Shown here piece by piece: positions 24,842 to 64,000 of a stretch of 64,000 bases of DNA. The notes beneath the pieces were generated by a model that was not told the origin of the DNA, did no database searches, and saw only the letters and a program-made list of their open reading frames with translations. The stretch comes from a virus. Taxonomy: Duplodnaviria > Heunggongvirae > Uroviricota > Caudoviricetes. The DNA lies in IMG/VR virus record IMGVR_UViG_3300045988_003641, positions 25,067 to 89,066 of that record, one strand, 5' to 3'. A program made the translations under genes and the position numbers. Position 1 is the stretch's first letter, and the number at the start of each line of letters is the position of its first letter.

Positions 24842-25098
24842 TTTGTAAATCCTTTCTTAATGAACCAGTTGATAACACTCTTCACAACTTTACTACGATG
24901 GTAGATAAAATGTGGAGAGGGTTGGTATGAACCATAAGCCCAGAAAGCGATAATTTCATTACACACTGTGCATCGGGTACTTTCTTCAGCAATATGACCG
25001 TTAACTATTTCACTTACCTCACCTTGTAAGTCTGTACACCCACAATGTGGACAACGGATAGGTGTTCCATCAGACTCATAGCAGTGTTCAATTTTCAT
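24838..25098 (-). CDS. zinc-ribbon protein
   Basis: 86 aa; CPHCGC...CTVC cysteine pairs. Confidence 0.3.
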   Translation of the reverse strand: MKIEHCYESDGTPIRCPHCGCTDLQGEVSEIVNGHIAEESTRCTVCNEIIAFWAYGSYQPSPHFIYHRSKVVKSVINWFIKKGFTK

Positions 25099-52424: not shown

Positions 52425-52695
52425 AGAGAAGTGGGAAATTTTACCATTAGTCAGTGAAGGTGGTAATGGTTGTGAAATGTACATGATACGTGGTCATGTT
52501 CCAGAACCAATTGCACTTGAGATGGTAAACAACTTTACAGATGGTTCTTACAAAGACTTAGGAGAGCCAACTATAAAGCATCAATGGGTAAAACCTGTAC
52601 CAGACAGCACAGGTAACTGTAGTGTACTTTACCACGTTGTAGACCCTGTAAAATGCAAATCTGCAATGGCAGTAACAAACGTAACCTTTGATTGA
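52417..52695 (+). CDS. hypothetical protein
   Basis: 92 aa. Confidence 0.3.
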   Translation: MAKEKWEILPLVSEGGNGCEMYMIRGHVPEPIALEMVNNFTDGSYKDLGEPTIKHQWVKPVPDSTGNCSVLYHVVDPVKCKSAMAVTNVTFD

Positions 52696-53588
52696 GAGAC
52701 AAAACTATGAAAACATCTATCCGTGTTACAGTTCATTCACCAACTAAAGGGACTCACGAAGAAGAGTTTAACATCGTCCAATTTCCTTCTGGTGAGATTG
52801 GTGGACATTTTTCACCAGAGTTTGTTGATTTTACTGCTTATGCTGCATCATCCATCAACAACGTGATTATGATTATAAAGGGTTATGACAAAGACACATT
52901 ATTTGCTGTGGCACTTGCTAAAGAGGTAATTGATGATTTAGTACCTCATAAGTTTGCTATGAAGACTGCTATCTTTTACTATTTGCCAAATGCACGTTAC
53001 GACCGTCACATGTTTAAAGGTGATGCAGCAGCTTTGAAAGTGTTTGCACAACAGGTTAATGCAATGGGTTTTGATGCAGTCTGTGCAGTTGACCCTCATA
53101 GTTACGTTCCAGATAACCTTTTCAATTGCTTCCAGAGTATTCCTCAAAAGGAGATTGCAGTCCATTACGCAAATGACCCTCTGATTGATTACTTAGTAGC
53201 CCCAGATGCAGGTGCTTCTAAGAAGATTGCAGAGACTGCTAAAGAGGTGGATAAACCATATATCACAATGTCTAAGGTGCGAAATCTTAAGACTGGAGAA
53301 ATCACTGGTATGCGAATCCTTGACGATGTTGATTTGACCGATAAAACCGTCATGATTCTTGATGATATCTGTGATGGTGGTCGAACCTTCGTAGAGGCAG
53401 CTAAACACCTACGTGAAGCAGGTGCAAAACGTGTAGAGCTTTATGTAACACATGGTATCTTCTCTAAAGATGTTGAAAACCTTCTTGACAATGGTATCGA
53501 CCATATTTACACTACAAACTCTTTAGGCGAAGCTAAAGACCGTGGCTTAACACATTACAGTCAAGTTACTGTAGCAAACCTTGATTGA
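52692..53588 (+). CDS. ribose-phosphate pyrophosphokinase family protein (Prs-like; possibly ADP-ribose pyrophosphokinase)
   Basis: 298 aa; type I PRTase PRPP-binding loop VMILDDICDGGRT; directly upstream of NAMPT-like gene. Confidence 0.6.
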   Translation: MRDKTMKTSIRVTVHSPTKGTHEEEFNIVQFPSGEIGGHFSPEFVDFTAYAASSINNVIMIIKGYDKDTLFAVALAKEVIDDLVPHKFAMKTAIFYYLPNARYDRHMFKGDAAALKVFAQQVNAMGFDAVCAVDPHSYVPDNLFNCFQSIPQKEIAVHYANDPLIDYLVAPDAGASKKIAETAKEVDKPYITMSKVRNLKTGEITGMRILDDVDLTDKTVMILDDICDGGRTFVEAAKHLREAGAKRVELYVTHGIFSKDVENLLDNGIDHIYTTNSLGEAKDRGLTHYSQVTVANLD

Positions 53589-53635
53589 AACTTTATATGG
53601 GCTTGAAAGACCCATTTTGAGAGAGAGATTAAAAG

Positions 53636-55417
53636 ATGACTAAATCACTTTATGCAGTACCAGCAGGTTTAAACGCGGATGCTTACAAGTCTGGCCATGT
53701 TTACCAGTACCCTAGTGCAACAGAATACTTGATGTTCAACCTGACACCACGTAGTGACAAATGGTTTAACAGCCCTTTAGCAATTGACGGTGTAGTGGCT
53801 TTTGGTATTCAACGTTTTGTTAAAGATTACTTGATAGACCACTGGAACGCCACTTTCTTTGAACGTGATAAAAAAGAAGCAATTGACGAAATCTTAGAAG
53901 TCATGAATGGTGTTCTGGGTAAAGATGCTATCGGTCGAGAGCATTGGGAAGCACTTCACGACTTAGGTTATCTACCAGTTGAAGTATACGCGGTAGAAGA
54001 AGGTACAGTTGTCCCTATGCGTGTCCCAATGATTGTCTTCCAGAACACTGTTTCAGGTTTCCATTGGGTAGCAGGTTATCTGGAAGATGCTTTCTCTGCT
54101 GAGATTTGGAAGGCTTGCACTATTGCAACTATTGCATTGCATTACAAACGCATCTGTAAGAAGTGGGCTGACCTTACTTGTGACAACGACTTACATCTGC
54201 CCTATCAGTGCCATGACTTTGCTATGCGTGGTATGTCCGGCTTTACTGATGACGCATTTAACGCTGTAGGTCACTTAACCAGCTTTAAAGGAACCGATAG
54301 CTTCCCTGCTGTATACACGGCTAAACGCATCTATGGACAGTCTTACCCAATCTCTGATATTGGTAGTTCTGTACCAGCCACTGAACACTCTGTAATGTGT
54401 GCAAACATTGCTTGGGAAGGTGGTAATGAATTGATTGAAGAAGAAAGACGCTTTAAAGGTGAGTTACAAACCTTCCGTCGTTTCTTAACAGAAACTTACC
54501 CAACTGGTATTGCAAGTATTGTTTCAGATACTTATAACTTCTGGAGAACTGTGTCAGAAATCTTACCAGCACTCCGTAAAGAAATTATGGAACGTGATGG
54601 TAAACTGGTAATTCGCCCTGACTCTGGAGACCCTGTACATATTGTCACAGGTTATAAAGCAATCCACTTAGAGTGTGCTAAAAAGGCTTATTACGAGCAC
54701 CTAAGCAAGCTTGAAGCCAGCGACACAATGTTGAATGCTGTTCTGAACATGAAGCTTGAAAACATCAACTATGGTATTGCTGGATGGCTACTGTCAGAAG
54801 GCTACGAAATGGTTGTTGACAGAGAAGACTTTGAAGTAGCCGATACAGTGTTGCTGAAAGATGCTTACATCAACGGCTCTGCAAACGTTGTAACACGTCC
54901 TGTAGCGGAGATTGATGGAGCTATTAAGACACTGTACAACATCTTTGGGGGAACTATTAACTCTAAAGGGTTTAAGGTACTGGATGAGCACATTGGCCTT
55001 ATCTATGGCGACTCTATCACGCTGGAACGTGCAAACGAAATCCTGAAGCGTCTGTATGAAATGGGTTTTGCAAGCTCTAACGTAGTGTTTGGTGTAGGCT
55101 CTTACACTTACCAGTACATGACTCGTGACACCTTTGCATTTGCTGTTAAAGCAACTCTTGCAAGCATTGGTGGTAAAGAGATTATGCTTGCAAAAGACCC
55201 TAAAACAGATAGTGGTGTTAAGAAGTCTGCTTTTGGTGGTGTAGTACCTATGTGGAATGGTGATAAGTTGAAAGCTGTAGATGGCTATGGATTCCAGAGC
55301 TTTGCAGATGTACTTGAACATCCAGCTTGTGCTCTACGTTTAGTCTTTAGTGACTCTGAGCAGTATGGTTACACATCTCTTGGTGATATTCGAAATAATA
55401 TTGACAAGCAGCTTTAA
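53636..55417 (+). CDS. nicotinamide phosphoribosyltransferase family protein (NAMPT-like)
   Basis: 593 aa; GTDSFPA and PATEHS motifs resemble NAMPT signatures. Confidence 0.65.
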   Translation: MTKSLYAVPAGLNADAYKSGHVYQYPSATEYLMFNLTPRSDKWFNSPLAIDGVVAFGIQRFVKDYLIDHWNATFFERDKKEAIDEILEVMNGVLGKDAIGREHWEALHDLGYLPVEVYAVEEGTVVPMRVPMIVFQNTVSGFHWVAGYLEDAFSAEIWKACTIATIALHYKRICKKWADLTCDNDLHLPYQCHDFAMRGMSGFTDDAFNAVGHLTSFKGTDSFPAVYTAKRIYGQSYPISDIGSSVPATEHSVMCANIAWEGGNELIEEERRFKGELQTFRRFLTETYPTGIASIVSDTYNFWRTVSEILPALRKEIMERDGKLVIRPDSGDPVHIVTGYKAIHLECAKKAYYEHLSKLEASDTMLNAVLNMKLENINYGIAGWLLSEGYEMVVDREDFEVADTVLLKDAYINGSANVVTRPVAEIDGAIKTLYNIFGGTINSKGFKVLDEHIGLIYGDSITLERANEILKRLYEMGFASSNVVFGVGSYTYQYMTRDTFAFAVKATLASIGGKEIMLAKDPKTDSGVKKSAFGGVVPMWNGDKLKAVDGYGFQSFADVLEHPACALRLVFSDSEQYGYTSLGDIRNNIDKQL

Positions 55418-59648: not shown

Positions 59649-60197
59649 ATGAAGAAATTGATTCTAGGTTTGTGCTTAATGTTTACAGCACACTTATCTT
59701 ATGCAGTTGACTGCCCAGAGCTATCAATTAGCCAAAAAGTAAACATGTTAAAAGCTTACCAGTATGGTGAGAACAACATGGGTAAAGGTTGGGGTATCAC
59801 TCTAGCTGCTATAGCCTTACAAGAGTCAGAGTTAGGTCTGAAGGTAGAGAATAAAAAGACACATGATTATGGTATTTTCCAGAATCACTTGAAGACTGTT
59901 GTAAAGCGTAACAAAATTAGTCCTAATATGGCTAAAAAGAAACTCTTAAAAGACTTTAACTATGCTGCGAAGGAAACTCACAAAGAGCTTGAGTTTTGGA
60001 CAAAGGTGCATGGTCAGCCAAAGTCAAAGAAGACTTTACAAAAAGTTTTAGCATCATATAATGCTGGGTATTCGTACAAAATCCCTAAAGCTAAGAAATA
60101 TTCTCAAGATGTCTATAACAACATGAAAGTCATTGCTCAATGTGAATTTGCAACAAACATTTCTAAGGTAAACCATGAAAAAATTAAAAAAGTCTGA
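59649..60197 (+). CDS. lytic transglycosylase with signal peptide (candidate endolysin)
   Basis: 182 aa; N-terminal signal sequence; SLT-like catalytic ES in ALQESELG plus GIFQ and SYNAGYSY motifs. Confidence 0.55.
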   Translation: MKKLILGLCLMFTAHLSYAVDCPELSISQKVNMLKAYQYGENNMGKGWGITLAAIALQESELGLKVENKKTHDYGIFQNHLKTVVKRNKISPNMAKKKLLKDFNYAAKETHKELEFWTKVHGQPKSKKTLQKVLASYNAGYSYKIPKAKKYSQDVYNNMKVIAQCEFATNISKVNHEKIKKV

Positions 60198-60870
60198 TGA
60201 AGTACTGTGTCATGCTTACGACTTACATCCTCATGAGTTAGGTCTTGATTCCTGTGTATGGACTCCAGAACAGTGTAGGGATTTTGAAGACACTGCAAGA
60301 GAAGTTGTATGCTCACTCGAAGAGTTCCACACATCAGAGCCAATTGTGAATGTTGTAGATAAAGAGACTGGACAAACTATAGGTGTAAGTCGTGATAGCT
60401 TAGTCATAGTCAATAAAGACCTTGTAGAAAAAGGTAACCTCATCTTAGCAGATATTGATGGTGTTCTTACAAATTTTAATCACGAAGATTGCTCAACGGA
60501 ATTGACTGATGGGTCATTCTCACAGTACACTAATCTTCTTGACTCTGTAAGAGCAAAACCAACGTATGTCTTTAGTATTATTGATGCAATTGCTAATCAT
60601 GCTGCCATTGGACTCTTGACAGCGAGAGGTGAATCTCAGAGAATACCTACTGAGATGTTTTTAAGGCACAATATAGAGCATGATTACTTGCTTTTTATGC
60701 GTGGTTTTGGAACTAACTCTATAAGTGCAGAAAGTTTGAAAGTGAGGATGATTCAGTCTTGCATTCTTCCTTACTTTAATATAGTATGTTTTATAGAAGA
60801 TACAGAGAAGAATGTTCAGAAGGTAAACAGAATCCTTCCACACATTAAAACCATGTTAGTTAAACACTGA
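60175..60870 (+). CDS. HAD-superfamily hydrolase (putative nucleotidase/phosphatase)
   Basis: 231 aa; motif I-like LILADIDGVLTNF. Confidence 0.4.
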   Translation: MKKLKKSDEVLCHAYDLHPHELGLDSCVWTPEQCRDFEDTAREVVCSLEEFHTSEPIVNVVDKETGQTIGVSRDSLVIVNKDLVEKGNLILADIDGVLTNFNHEDCSTELTDGSFSQYTNLLDSVRAKPTYVFSIIDAIANHAAIGLLTARGESQRIPTEMFLRHNIEHDYLLFMRGFGTNSISAESLKVRMIQSCILPYFNIVCFIEDTEKNVQKVNRILPHIKTMLVKH

Positions 60871-61907: not shown

Positions 61908-62173
61908 CAGAGAATCAAGATACTTTTTACGTAGAAGGGTACTTACTGTTACCACGACCAAAAGAGACTTATATGCGAATTGATTTCTCACCAACCATTA
62001 TGGATAATGTGATGTGCCATATCTTTATGCAAGGTGTCACAGCACAGCTTAAACATGTTGGTAAAGAGTGCAAAATAAAGGTTGACACTCATCCAGAAAT
62101 CAAAGAGAATCACTACACATGGTTCTTACCAGATTCTAAAGAAATCTTAGCAGTTCTTAAAACGAGGAAGTAA
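61904..62173 (+). CDS. hypothetical protein
   Basis: 89 aa. Confidence 0.3.
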   Translation: MTENQDTFYVEGYLLLPRPKETYMRIDFSPTIMDNVMCHIFMQGVTAQLKHVGKECKIKVDTHPEIKENHYTWFLPDSKEILAVLKTRK

Positions 62174-62175
62174 CT

Positions 62176-62499
62176 ATGCAGATTAATGGAAGAGACTTTG
62201 TAGCCATTTACTATGAGAAAGGTAAAGAAGTTGGCGTAGCACAAGTATCTTATGGCAATGGTAAGTGGCTATATGGAACAATCGCAGTAGTAGGAACAAG
62301 AAGTGATACAAAAACCTTTAAAGATTGTGTTGACCTTCTTGAAGAATCCATCCAGAATCATTGGTGTCTGATATGGATGACTGATAACGAAGTGATGGAG
62401 CGTTTCAAAAAGATTGATATCAACATTGACAGTATTGAGCATGTTGATTTATATGAACTAACCGAAAAGGTAAGCTATGAAAGCTCTAGAGGTAATTGA
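62176..62499 (+). CDS. hypothetical protein
   Basis: 107 aa. Confidence 0.3.
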   Translation: MQINGRDFVAIYYEKGKEVGVAQVSYGNGKWLYGTIAVVGTRSDTKTFKDCVDLLEESIQNHWCLIWMTDNEVMERFKKIDINIDSIEHVDLYELTEKVSYESSRGN

Positions 62500-62704
62500 T
62501 AAAGACACTGGAGAAGTTACATCAGCATGTGTTTTCGTTAGTAACGACACAGTGATACCATTTTACAATCTCGATAGTTTTAGTTTTACAGGGATAACTC
62601 CAGAAGAATACTTTGAAGACCTCACCTTTGCCAGAATCTCTATAGACACATTCTATAAATGCTTCTATGATGAAGGTAAAGAATTACGAGAAACTGAACT
62701 ATAA
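62477..62704 (+). CDS. hypothetical protein
   Basis: 75 aa. Confidence 0.25.
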   Translation: MKALEVIDKDTGEVTSACVFVSNDTVIPFYNLDSFSFTGITPEEYFEDLTFARISIDTFYKCFYDEGKELRETEL

Positions 62705-62716
62705 GGTATATATTAT

Positions 62717-62917
62717 ATGGCTGACTTCTGTAAAGACTGTTCTATCGAAATGTTCGGACGTGATACAGGTGACTTAAAAGGTCTTATCACTGAAGATGAC
62801 TTTAAAGCTGGTTATGCAATGCCAGTAATCTGTGAAGGTTGTGGGTGTATCTGGGTAGACCATGAAGGGCAACGTGTAAAACCTTCAGAAGATAAAGAAT
62901 CTTGGGAGAGATGCTAA
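62717..62917 (+). CDS. small cysteine-rich protein
   Basis: 66 aa; CKDC...CEGCGC. Confidence 0.3.
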   Translation: MADFCKDCSIEMFGRDTGDLKGLITEDDFKAGYAMPVICEGCGCIWVDHEGQRVKPSEDKESWERC

Positions 62918-63703
62918 ATGGGTATTGTAAAAATCATCAATGGTGATATCTTTGCTGCATTTGATAAAGGTAAGTTTGACATCATTGGTCATGGTTGTAA
63001 CTGCATGAACCTAATGGGCGCAGGTATCGCTGACAAGATTTCTAAACTTTACCCAAAAGCATATGAGACCGATACAGAAGTTTATCTCTATGCAGGTGGT
63101 ATAGGTCACAAACCCTGTGAGAATTTACTAGGTAATTTCTCTGTAGCACGCTTAAAACAAGGTCGTATAGCTAACCTTTACACTCAGCTTAAGACTGGTA
63201 AAGATGCCCGATACAGTGCTTTAGAGTCATCTTTGAAGCAACTTAACAGATACTGTGAAGTTAATCAGTTGAAGAAAGTTGGTTTACCTATGATTGGTGC
63301 AGGTATCGGTGGACTTGACCCTCAAGCCGTCACAGTTATCATCAATCAGGTGATGAAGAGTGTAGATGTTTATCTATATGTCTATGAAGGAGAGATGTAC
63401 CACAAGTTACTCTCAGGTTGGAAGAACTACTGTGAACCAGAATACTTTGCAGGTGTAGCAGTGTTCACAGATAACGCAGTTACCCTCTTCAGACGAAGAA
63501 AAGGTAAGATACATCAAAGTAACCCTCCGGTTGAAAAGATGTCTCTAAGTAACGCTCTAGTTACCCACCTGTCAAAGAGCAATCACAGAATTGCTGTAAC
63601 ATTTGGTAGTGATGCAGAAGCTTATATCTATGCAAGAACTGATGAGGATATTGAGGCAATCTTCTCTTCACCAGAAGTTACCTTCTTAGACGCAAAGAAC
63701 TAA
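62918..63703 (+). CDS. macro-domain protein (ADP-ribose binding/processing), putative
   Basis: 261 aa; N-terminal INGDIFAA...DIIGHGCNCMNLMGAGIA resembles macro-domain ADP-ribose pocket; C-terminal ~110 aa of unknown function. Confidence 0.5.
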   Translation: MGIVKIINGDIFAAFDKGKFDIIGHGCNCMNLMGAGIADKISKLYPKAYETDTEVYLYAGGIGHKPCENLLGNFSVARLKQGRIANLYTQLKTGKDARYSALESSLKQLNRYCEVNQLKKVGLPMIGAGIGGLDPQAVTVIINQVMKSVDVYLYVYEGEMYHKLLSGWKNYCEPEYFAGVAVFTDNAVTLFRRRKGKIHQSNPPVEKMSLSNALVTHLSKSNHRIAVTFGSDAEAYIYARTDEDIEAIFSSPEVTFLDAKN

Positions 63704-63775
63704 GAAACTCTGTAGGATATTCACAATAGCCTAAGCCTTTCTTATCTGGTAAATTTTTCAGGTAAGGAGGGCTTT

Positions 63776-63955
63776 TTCATTTCAGATTTGTGCAGGTAGA
63801 GTTCTGTAGAGAAATCTATAGAGAAAATTTTGAACTCCAAAGAGAAAATTCATTTTCAAACTGTGCAGGTAATCTCCAAAGAGCTTTTTCATTTTCAAAA
63901 CGTGCAGACCCCGCTCAGGTCGGGCAAGAAAAATCATTTTAGAATTGTGCAGGTA
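63776..63955. repeat. tandem direct repeats TTCATTTTCAAANNGTGCAGGTA (four copies)
   Basis: copies at 63776-63798, 63850-63872, 63888-63907, 63933-63955; CTCCAAAGAG sub-motif also repeated; followed by C-rich tract to window end. Confidence 0.8.
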
Positions 63956-64000
63956 GGTTTTTATAGACAGCCAGCCCAACCCCTCTCCCCCTCTTACTCC

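Follow-up and report, generated by a model that had tools for sequence, protein, structure and literature searches.

A two-domain macro protein of Felix-O1-like phages as a candidate distal, fused counterpart of the NARP1-AP phosphatase Adpp

Overview

The macro-CTD gene of Felix-O1-like phages encodes a macro domain joined to an orphan C-terminal domain (CTD), and its product may be a distal, fused Adpp-like enzyme that feeds ADP-ribose (ADPR) to NARP1, the phage NAD+ reconstitution pathway. On the sequence comparisons described here, this reading is given about an even chance of being correct. The gene was studied in a stretch of 64,000 nucleotides (the window) taken from the Caudoviricetes record IMGVR_UViG_3300045988_003641, positions 25,067 to 89,066. 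The window belongs to a Felixounavirus (Felix-O1-like phage), and its macro-CTD protein is 100% identical at the amino acid level to those of Felixounavirus LF82P3 and of a further IMG/VR locus (L013).

The background to this reading is a recent preprint from the Sorek laboratory (10.64898/2026.01.28.702374). The defence protein aRES, which carries a RES domain, splits NAD+ into nicotinamide plus ADPR-1''-phosphate (abbreviated ADPR-1P), and the latter is unusable by NARP1. Some phages have added to the NARP1 operon a macro-domain phosphatase, Adpp, which converts ADPR-1P to ADPR. The validated Adpp is KNV71_gp137 of Vibrio phage Gary, and the Adpp alanine mutants H24A and N27A lose anti-aRES activity (Osterman et al., bioRxiv 10.64898/2026.01.28.702374).

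The macro-CTD protein would, in the mechanism proposed here, serve Ounavirinae phages as an accessory anti-defence enzyme with two domains, a distal fused version of the phosphatase Adpp of the 'NARP1-AP' pathway. Its macro domain would bind an ADPR derivative substituted on the terminal ribose and hydrolyse it to free ADPR, the likeliest substrate being ADPR-1''-phosphate (or a related 1''-substituted ADPR), the product of RES-domain NAD+ phosphorylases such as aRES. The freed ADPR would then be pyrophosphorylated by Adps and joined to nicotinamide by Namat, which would rebuild NAD+; the genes of both partners lie in the same co-directional block, 7.5-10 kb upstream. The protection conferred by NARP1 would in this manner be extended to the RES-type NAD+ phosphorylases of enterobacterial hosts.

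The macro domain and its predicted ADP-ribose pocket

The gene and the features of its product are the following:

62918..63703, plus strand: macro-CTD gene, 261 codons plus stop, ATG start, from the open reading frame (ORF) listing
62918..63385, plus strand: macro domain, aa 1-156 (Poa1p/TARG1-like clade, Adpp-like signature)
62990..63001, plus strand: codons of H25-G26-C27-N28, with H25 and N28 equivalent to Adpp H24 and N27 in alignments
63014..63031, plus strand: predicted ADP-ribose-binding loop 1, M33-G-A-G-I-A38, with G34, A35, G36 and A38 invariant
63173..63187, plus strand: N86-L-Y-T-Q90, with Q90 at the position of the TARG1 catalytic lysine (K84) according to HMMER and MAFFT
63287..63319, plus strand: predicted diphosphate-binding loop 2, P124-M-I-G-A-G-I-G-G-L-D134, with G131 at the position of TARG1 D125
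63386..63700, plus strand: C-terminal orphan domain, aa 157-261, with a predicted linker helix, six-strand beta-meander and terminal helix

An earlier reading of the sequence alone (the original prediction) had assigned a macro-domain protein to this ORF. The ORF listing returns exactly the interval that it gave, on the plus strand, with an ATG start and a length of 261 aa, and both motifs it quoted are present, GDIF at aa 9-12 and GHGCNCMNLMGAGIA at aa 24-38. Its assignment of the N-terminal part is supported by both sequence and predicted structure. The Pfam model Macro (PF01661) matches aa 25-141 with 32.4 bits, above the gathering threshold of 22 (E 1e-7, profile positions 2-117 of 118), and PHROG 335, annotated as 'phosphatase', matches aa 1-260 (E 4.7e-113). 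An AlphaFold2 model of the whole protein, with 19 homologues as input, reached a predicted local distance difference test score (pLDDT) of 86 and a predicted template modelling score (pTM) of 0.86. Foldseek aligned this model to more than 200 solved macrodomains, with a probability of 1.00 and target template modelling (TM) scores of 0.69-0.84, and the three-layer alpha/beta/alpha architecture is that of the macro fold. Among the matches in the PDB are TARG1 (TM 0.83), the macro domain of DarG (0.80) and Poa1p (0.74), and coronavirus Mac1 also superposes. The fold, for which structure prediction and Foldseek had been proposed as a check, falls within the macro domains. The division into two parts, expected to measure about 150 and 110 aa, was likewise recovered, with the boundary moved to aa 156/157 and a CTD of about 105 aa.

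Across the 19 homologues, the family-invariant residues are H25, N28, N31, G34-G36, N86-L-Y-T-Q90, P124 and G127-A-G-I-x-G-L-D134, which, as judged from alignment, appear to make up the ADP-ribose pocket. Loop 1, M33-GAGIA-38, aligns with the loop MGxGIA found in Adpp, TARG1 and AdfM, and the segment G127-AGIGG-132 of loop 2 is invariant or nearly so. With regard to the catalytic residues of the glycohydrolases, the HMMER alignment to TARG1 places Q90 opposite K84 and G131 opposite D125, and in MAFFT alignments the residue opposite the lysine of TARG1 and AdfM is Q90 or a non-conserved neighbour of it. No conserved lysine equivalent to TARG1 K84, DarG K80 or AdfM K78 is present in the alignments of the macro-CTD family.

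The macro domain is homologous to Adpp over its whole length. BLASTP aligns aa 3-154 with residues 1-156 of Gary Adpp at 27% identity (E 2e-13), and other NARP1-adjacent Adpp proteins are 29-34% identical to it. The H-x-x-N-C, MGxGIA, N-x-[YH]-x-Q and P-x-IG-x-G-x-x-G motifs are common to both groups across this whole-domain alignment (27-34% identity). Moreover, H25 and N28, the counterparts of the essential H24 and N27 of Adpp, are invariant in the 19 family members, and all aligned Adpp sequences also have a glutamine at the position of Q90. Both kinds of phage genome additionally encode Adps and Namat on the same strand as the macro gene. The two differ in that Adpp has one domain and 148-170 aa and is encoded within two genes of Adps/Namat, whereas macro-CTD has 261 aa and an extra orphan domain, and its gene lies 13 genes downstream of Namat.

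The closest solved folds are those of TARG1/OARD1 and DarG2/AdfM glycohydrolases (TM 0.80-0.83). The macro-CTD protein could accordingly be read as a macromolecular ADP-ribosyl hydrolase, an AdfM/DarG2-like antidote that would remove the ADP-ribose put on phage DNA, RNA or protein by host toxins such as DarT2, its CTD either taking the role of the toxin-binding domain of DarG or targeting nucleic acid. TARG1 and the DarG macro domain are its best structural matches, and the DarG models of NCBIfam and PADLOC give 47.5 and 47.6 bits, respectively, on the macro part. The combination of a macro domain with an extra C-terminal domain mirrors DarG2, whose second domain binds DarT2, and AdfM of PhiKZ provides a precedent for a phage macro antidote. 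Furthermore, a fast-evolving CTD and allelic replacement, both described below, would fit an arms race between proteins. The catalytic residues nonetheless make this reading unlikely, as the lysine K84 of TARG1 is an invariant glutamine and D125 a glycine in macro-CTD, and no DarT partner gene was found. The DarG models cover only the macro part, with positions 4-150 of 338 matched in NCBIfam NF048014, at 47.5 bits against a cut-off of 250, and positions 18-145 of 329 in the PADLOC model, so the C-terminal DarT-binding part is unmatched. AdfM itself is 23% identical and scores 26 bits, compared with 52-76 bits for Adpp proteins. An assignment to the DarG/TARG1/AdfM class was rejected on the basis of Q90 and G131, and the generic suggestion of the original prediction, that the protein reverses ADP-ribosylation of the DarT type, is disfavoured by the invariant glutamine and the lack of a conserved lysine.

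A control with Gary Adpp bears on the same point. Its best PDB sequence match is TARG1 (E 1.7e-7), with Poa1p at E 0.79, and the NCBIfam DarG model gives a partial match of 35 bits with it and of 42-49 bits with two other Adpp proteins; the validated phosphatase thus yields DarG and TARG1 matches as strong as those of macro-CTD. Because this database picture is the same, the resemblance to TARG1 and DarG appears to be a property of the whole Adpp clade, and it therefore provides no evidence for DNA de-ADP-ribosylation.

The NARP1 genes and their linkage to the macro gene

Two further genes of the window belong to the proposed pathway:

52707..53588, plus strand: Adps (ADP-ribose pyrophosphokinase, Prs-like), first NARP1 enzyme, Pfam Pribosyltran and Pribosyl_synth
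53636..55417, plus strand: Namat (nicotinamide ADP-ribose transferase, NAMPT-like), second NARP1 enzyme, Pfam NAPRTase and NAMPT_N

By homology, this Prs/NAMPT pair corresponds to NARP1 and is orthologous to genes 79-80 of the Felixounavirus Bas63 (accession MZ501086, from the supplement of the paper), with 79% identity for Adps and 98% for Namat. NARP1 was discovered in Bas63, cells infected with which contain ADPR-PP, and deletion of genes 79-80 sensitises the phage to SIR2-HerA. Bas63 also holds the same macro gene of 786 nt, bas63_0095, which is found 15 genes downstream of Namat.

In the window, the end of Namat (55417) and the start of macro-CTD (62918) are 7.5 kb apart. The interval holds 13 ORFs on the same strand, which comprise one small hypothetical gene, rIIA and rIIB, genes for an SLT-like lysin, a PNKP-type HAD phosphatase and spanins, and some small genes. 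The original prediction had grouped the Prs/NAMPT pair and the macro gene as an NAD+ 'toolkit'. Since macro-CTD is not adjacent to NARP1, this is better described as a conserved co-directional block than as a strict operon; the two do share a block, and it is the adjacency that fails. The order Adps, Namat, rIIA, rIIB, SLT, PNKP and macro-CTD, with other genes after Namat and after PNKP, is kept on one strand in divergent lineages, namely the metagenomic contigs L007 and L008 and an Erwinia Kolesnikvirus (L012), whose macro-CTD proteins are 33-44% identical to that of the window. The same order is found in most IMG/VR two-domain loci that have the full 10 kb of upstream sequence. Within the flanks of these IMG/VR loci, neither Adps nor Namat was detected in L015 and L034, and only Namat was detected in L037 and L042.

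The published census of Adpp covered two genes on either side of NARP1 and put the share of NARP1 phages with the phosphatase at 15%; its Table S1 contains no Escherichia, Salmonella or Citrobacter phages (10.64898/2026.01.28.702374). As the macro-CTD gene is 13 genes from Namat and the census spans two, it is absent from that list. The macro protein of the related Pakpunavirus JG004, a single domain of 159 aa encoded two genes after Namat, is counted there as Adpp. According to the counts in Table S2 of the same preprint, the bacteria with homologues of aRES include hosts of the phages considered here, namely Escherichia, Salmonella and Citrobacter.

Other arrangements of these genes were also observed. 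In Vibrio phage K460 (L003, 3169-6122), a three-gene NARP1-AP operon has the order Adps, macro 'phosphatase' (148 aa) and Namat, and its location immediately downstream of rIIA/rIIB means that an unrelated Vibrio phage shows the rII-NARP1 neighbourhood too. Three IMG/VR jumbo-phage loci (L071, L073 and L078) have a single-domain macro gene that follows a Namat-like gene at a distance of 1.5-2 kb and precedes an Adps-like gene by 4.6-6.3 kb, and these may be further split NARP1-AP arrangements. In some relatives, an HNH homing endonuclease is found between or just after Adps and Namat (radambza, the contig of P0013; L001, 3106-3597), unlike in the window, where 52692-55417 contains no HNH homing endonuclease.

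Points against an Adpp role and further readings of the macro domain

Several observations weigh against the assignment of macro-CTD to an Adpp-type role in NARP1. The gene is outside the NARP1 operon, with rIIA/rIIB and lysis genes in between, and its co-occurrence with NARP1 inside a single phage subfamily does not count as independent evidence. The phage panel used with aRES contained no Felixounavirus (10.64898/2026.01.28.702374). In addition, the single-domain proteins most closely related to macro-CTD (35% identity, 85 bits) belong to T4-like phages without NARP1 within 10 kb, where they adjoin vs/regB (for instance slur04 gp086, next to vs). These PHROG 335 'phosphatase' proteins share the HGCNC...NLYTQ signature with macro-CTD and differ from it in their length of about 150-160 aa and in lacking the C-terminal domain. 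Given such relatives, the HGCNC...NLYTQ clade seems to be broader than the NARP1-linked Adpp, and its substrate may be wider or different. Moreover, the Kolesnikvirus orthologue carries a glutamine at the position of the histidine that is essential in Adpp (IGQGCNC). Finally, the validated Adpp proteins are single-domain, and nothing accounts for the extra domain of this lineage. It is because of the T4-like relatives and the Kolesnikvirus glutamine that the Adpp-type mechanism is given about an even chance.

That Kolesnikvirus orthologue, from Erwinia phage vEam_W_25 (L012, 11998-12780), has 260 aa, and its C-terminal part can barely be aligned with the CTD of Felixounavirus.

The T4-like homologues would also be accounted for if macro-CTD hydrolysed or sequestered ADPR-derived signals or by-products, such as the cyclic ADPR (cADPR) isomers of Thoeris, His-ADPR or O-acetyl-ADPR. 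Signalling would then be turned off, perhaps with ADPR freed for NARP1 in the manner of RyDEP. Macro domains have many 1''/2''-substituted ADPR derivatives as substrates, and RyDEP is a precedent for an accessory enzyme of a NARP1 locus that turns immune signals into ADPR. The catalytic signature of macro-CTD, however, is that for which phosphatase activity has been validated. None of the searches made turned up homology to a known Thoeris sponge or hydrolase, and no cleavage of gcADPR by a macro domain was found in the literature examined. A role against immune signals is accordingly considered improbable.

A housekeeping function related to that of Poa1p was also weighed. Poa1p (PDB 6LFQ), the yeast ADP-ribose-1''-phosphate phosphatase, shares with macro-CTD the macro fold, an N-terminal motif of the H-x-C-N-C type and the chemistry proposed here. 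It differs in acting in the metabolism of by-products of tRNA splicing and in lacking an extra domain, and its sequence similarity to macro-CTD is marginal (E 0.011, aa 17-56 only). The protein might similarly dephosphorylate ADPR-1''-phosphate left by the action of a KptA/Tpt1 2'-phosphotransferase, together with a PNKP-like phosphatase, and one such candidate is encoded upstream:

60175..60870, plus strand: HAD/PNKP-type phosphatase gene, PHROG 3970, 'polynucleotide kinase' in GenBank

A PNKP-type HAD phosphatase gene lies 2 kb upstream of macro-CTD in all relatives, and in JG004 an RNA ligase gene adjoins Adps; these observations, and the fold and chemistry of Poa1p, would suit a role in RNA-repair clean-up. 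Such a role is nevertheless regarded as very improbable: no 2'-phosphotransferase or 2H phosphoesterase was found in the block, the PNKP-like protein of the window matches only the phosphatase part of PNK families, and allelic replacement and a fast-evolving CTD would be unusual for a housekeeping enzyme. With regard to the HAD protein itself, the families matched are exclusively of the PNKP phosphatase type; Pfam gives no match in the copy of the window and weak HAD_PNKP matches in relatives. Its ORF overlaps that of the SLT-like lysin by 23 nt, an adjacency kept in all relatives. The original prediction had counted this HAD hydrolase as part of the NAD+ toolkit, a suggestion not upheld, as only PNKP-type phosphatase matches and no link to NAD+ metabolism were found.

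The C-terminal domain

The CTD is a second folded domain under purifying selection, as indicated by the predicted structure and sequence evolution. It is considered a real domain because it is retained in every Ounavirinae-type homologue of 246-264 aa, because CTD profiles of two lineages with 14-19% identity match each other in hhalign (97% probability, E 1e-10), and because the ratio of non-synonymous to synonymous substitution rates (dN/dS) among 21 Felixounavirus alleles is 0.19. The corresponding values for the macro domain are 0.03-0.06, so that the CTD evolves about 3-6 times faster. It was the more divergent part in every comparison, with identities in lineage pairs of 81% for the macro domain vs 55% for the CTD, and of 53% vs 19%, and conservation within it is limited to the residues P174, G179 and Y236. 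Pervasive positive selection on the CTD was considered and not seen (omega 0.19 in the same 21 alleles).

The original prediction had left the C-terminal part unassigned, and it is still an orphan after searches of Pfam, NCBIfam, PADLOC, the PDB, BFVD and 1.84 billion representative proteins. No match was obtained in Pfam, NCBIfam or PADLOC. Among solved structures in the PDB none matched, and the best sequence-profile hit (a BamB propeller, E 0.027) was judged to be due to chance. In BFVD, the sole significant match (E 1.1e-6) was to SUSP2, a member of the same family, with all others at E >= 0.06. Apart from members of the family, an hmmsearch of the 1.84 billion proteins recovered two fragments and four repeat proteins, and no outside relative. 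The fragments (P0032 and P0036) are pieces of the macro-CTD family and not stand-alone CTDs; the four long repeat proteins (propeller, Sortilin and retroelement) were judged to be spurious matches over multiple stretches. The CTD thus has no detectable relatives outside the macro-CTD family in the databases searched. An identity with aRad1, a small phage inhibitor of aRES, was also rejected, as hhalign gave a probability of 0.13% and tblastn of aRad1a-g against the window returned only chance matches.

The locus itself seems to undergo exchange of alleles. In three Felixounavirus contigs (L009, L039 and L040), the neighbouring genes are 90-100% identical to those of the window at the protein level, and the macro-CTD allele is 42% identical overall (macro domain 53%, CTD 28%). 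At the nucleotide level, similarity is lost near codon 48 and returns about 150 nt beyond the stop codon (window ~63060-63850), a pattern that points to the exchange of a discrete cassette.

Contact of the CTD with a variable partner is suggested by its variable surface and by the exchange of alleles. The role guessed to be likeliest is that of a module for partner binding or regulation, which might for example dock on a host defence protein or hold the enzyme in an assembly. A more specific version, in which the CTD would be a fast-evolving anti-defence binder that docks on or inhibits a host immune protein that consumes NAD+ or ADP-ribosylates its targets, is considered unlikely. The protein would in that case resemble DarG as a fusion of 'enzyme plus inhibitor', but with an unrelated fold, and Bas63, from which NARP1 first became known, would already hold an unrecognised third NARP1 component.

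Surroundings of the gene

The ATG of macro-CTD abuts the TAA stop codon of a conserved upstream ORF of 66 aa (TAA|ATG), an arrangement from which translational coupling of the two genes is predicted. On its other side, the gene is followed by one further feature:

63733..63774, plus strand: terminator-like hairpin and T-run, closing the co-directional gene block

As this hairpin comes after it, macro-CTD is the last gene of the long co-directional block. Directly 3' of the hairpin, and ahead of a run of small genes seen in relatives, are four copies of a motif of ~22 nt, TCATTT(T)CA(G/A)A-N2-TGTGCAGGTA, which start near 63777, 63850, 63889 and 63934 (span 63777-63967) and are probably phage promoter or regulator sites.

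A 75-aa ORF (62477-62704), located two genes upstream of macro-CTD, has a very divergent or unrelated sequence in Bas63 and CL1. The counterparts there are 31-32% identical over partial length, and neighbouring genes are >95% identical. The site of this ORF seems to be a second small variable slot in the block.

Macro-CTD is a conserved gene, present in over 250 phage genomes. A megablast of positions 62000-64000 matched 247 phage records, mainly of Escherichia and Salmonella Felix-O1-like phages, and the GenBank labels for the macro-CTD gene are 'putative phosphatase', 'macro domain protein' or 'O-acetyl-ADP-ribose deacetylase'.

Implications

The macro domain belongs to a phage family that is known and has already been annotated. 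What is new is the recognition of macro-CTD, by sequence criteria, as a putative Adpp-like gene, fused and distal, in just the group of phages for which NARP1 was defined, together with its orphan C-terminal domain and the cassette-like polymorphism at the locus. The CTD offers a clean example of a lineage-restricted domain, constrained yet fast-evolving, on a conserved candidate anti-defence enzyme, and a domain of this kind and the cassette-like replacement of alleles are each a feature that often marks direct contact with host immunity. If the protein is an Adpp-type phosphatase, Felix-O1-like phages, which include candidates for therapy and Bas63, would already carry the extended NARP1-AP pathway in a split form, and Bas63 is predicted to be resistant to aRES, with this resistance dependent on bas63_0095. 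The estimate of 15% of NARP1 phages with the phosphatase would then be too low, because only genes within two positions of NARP1 were counted.

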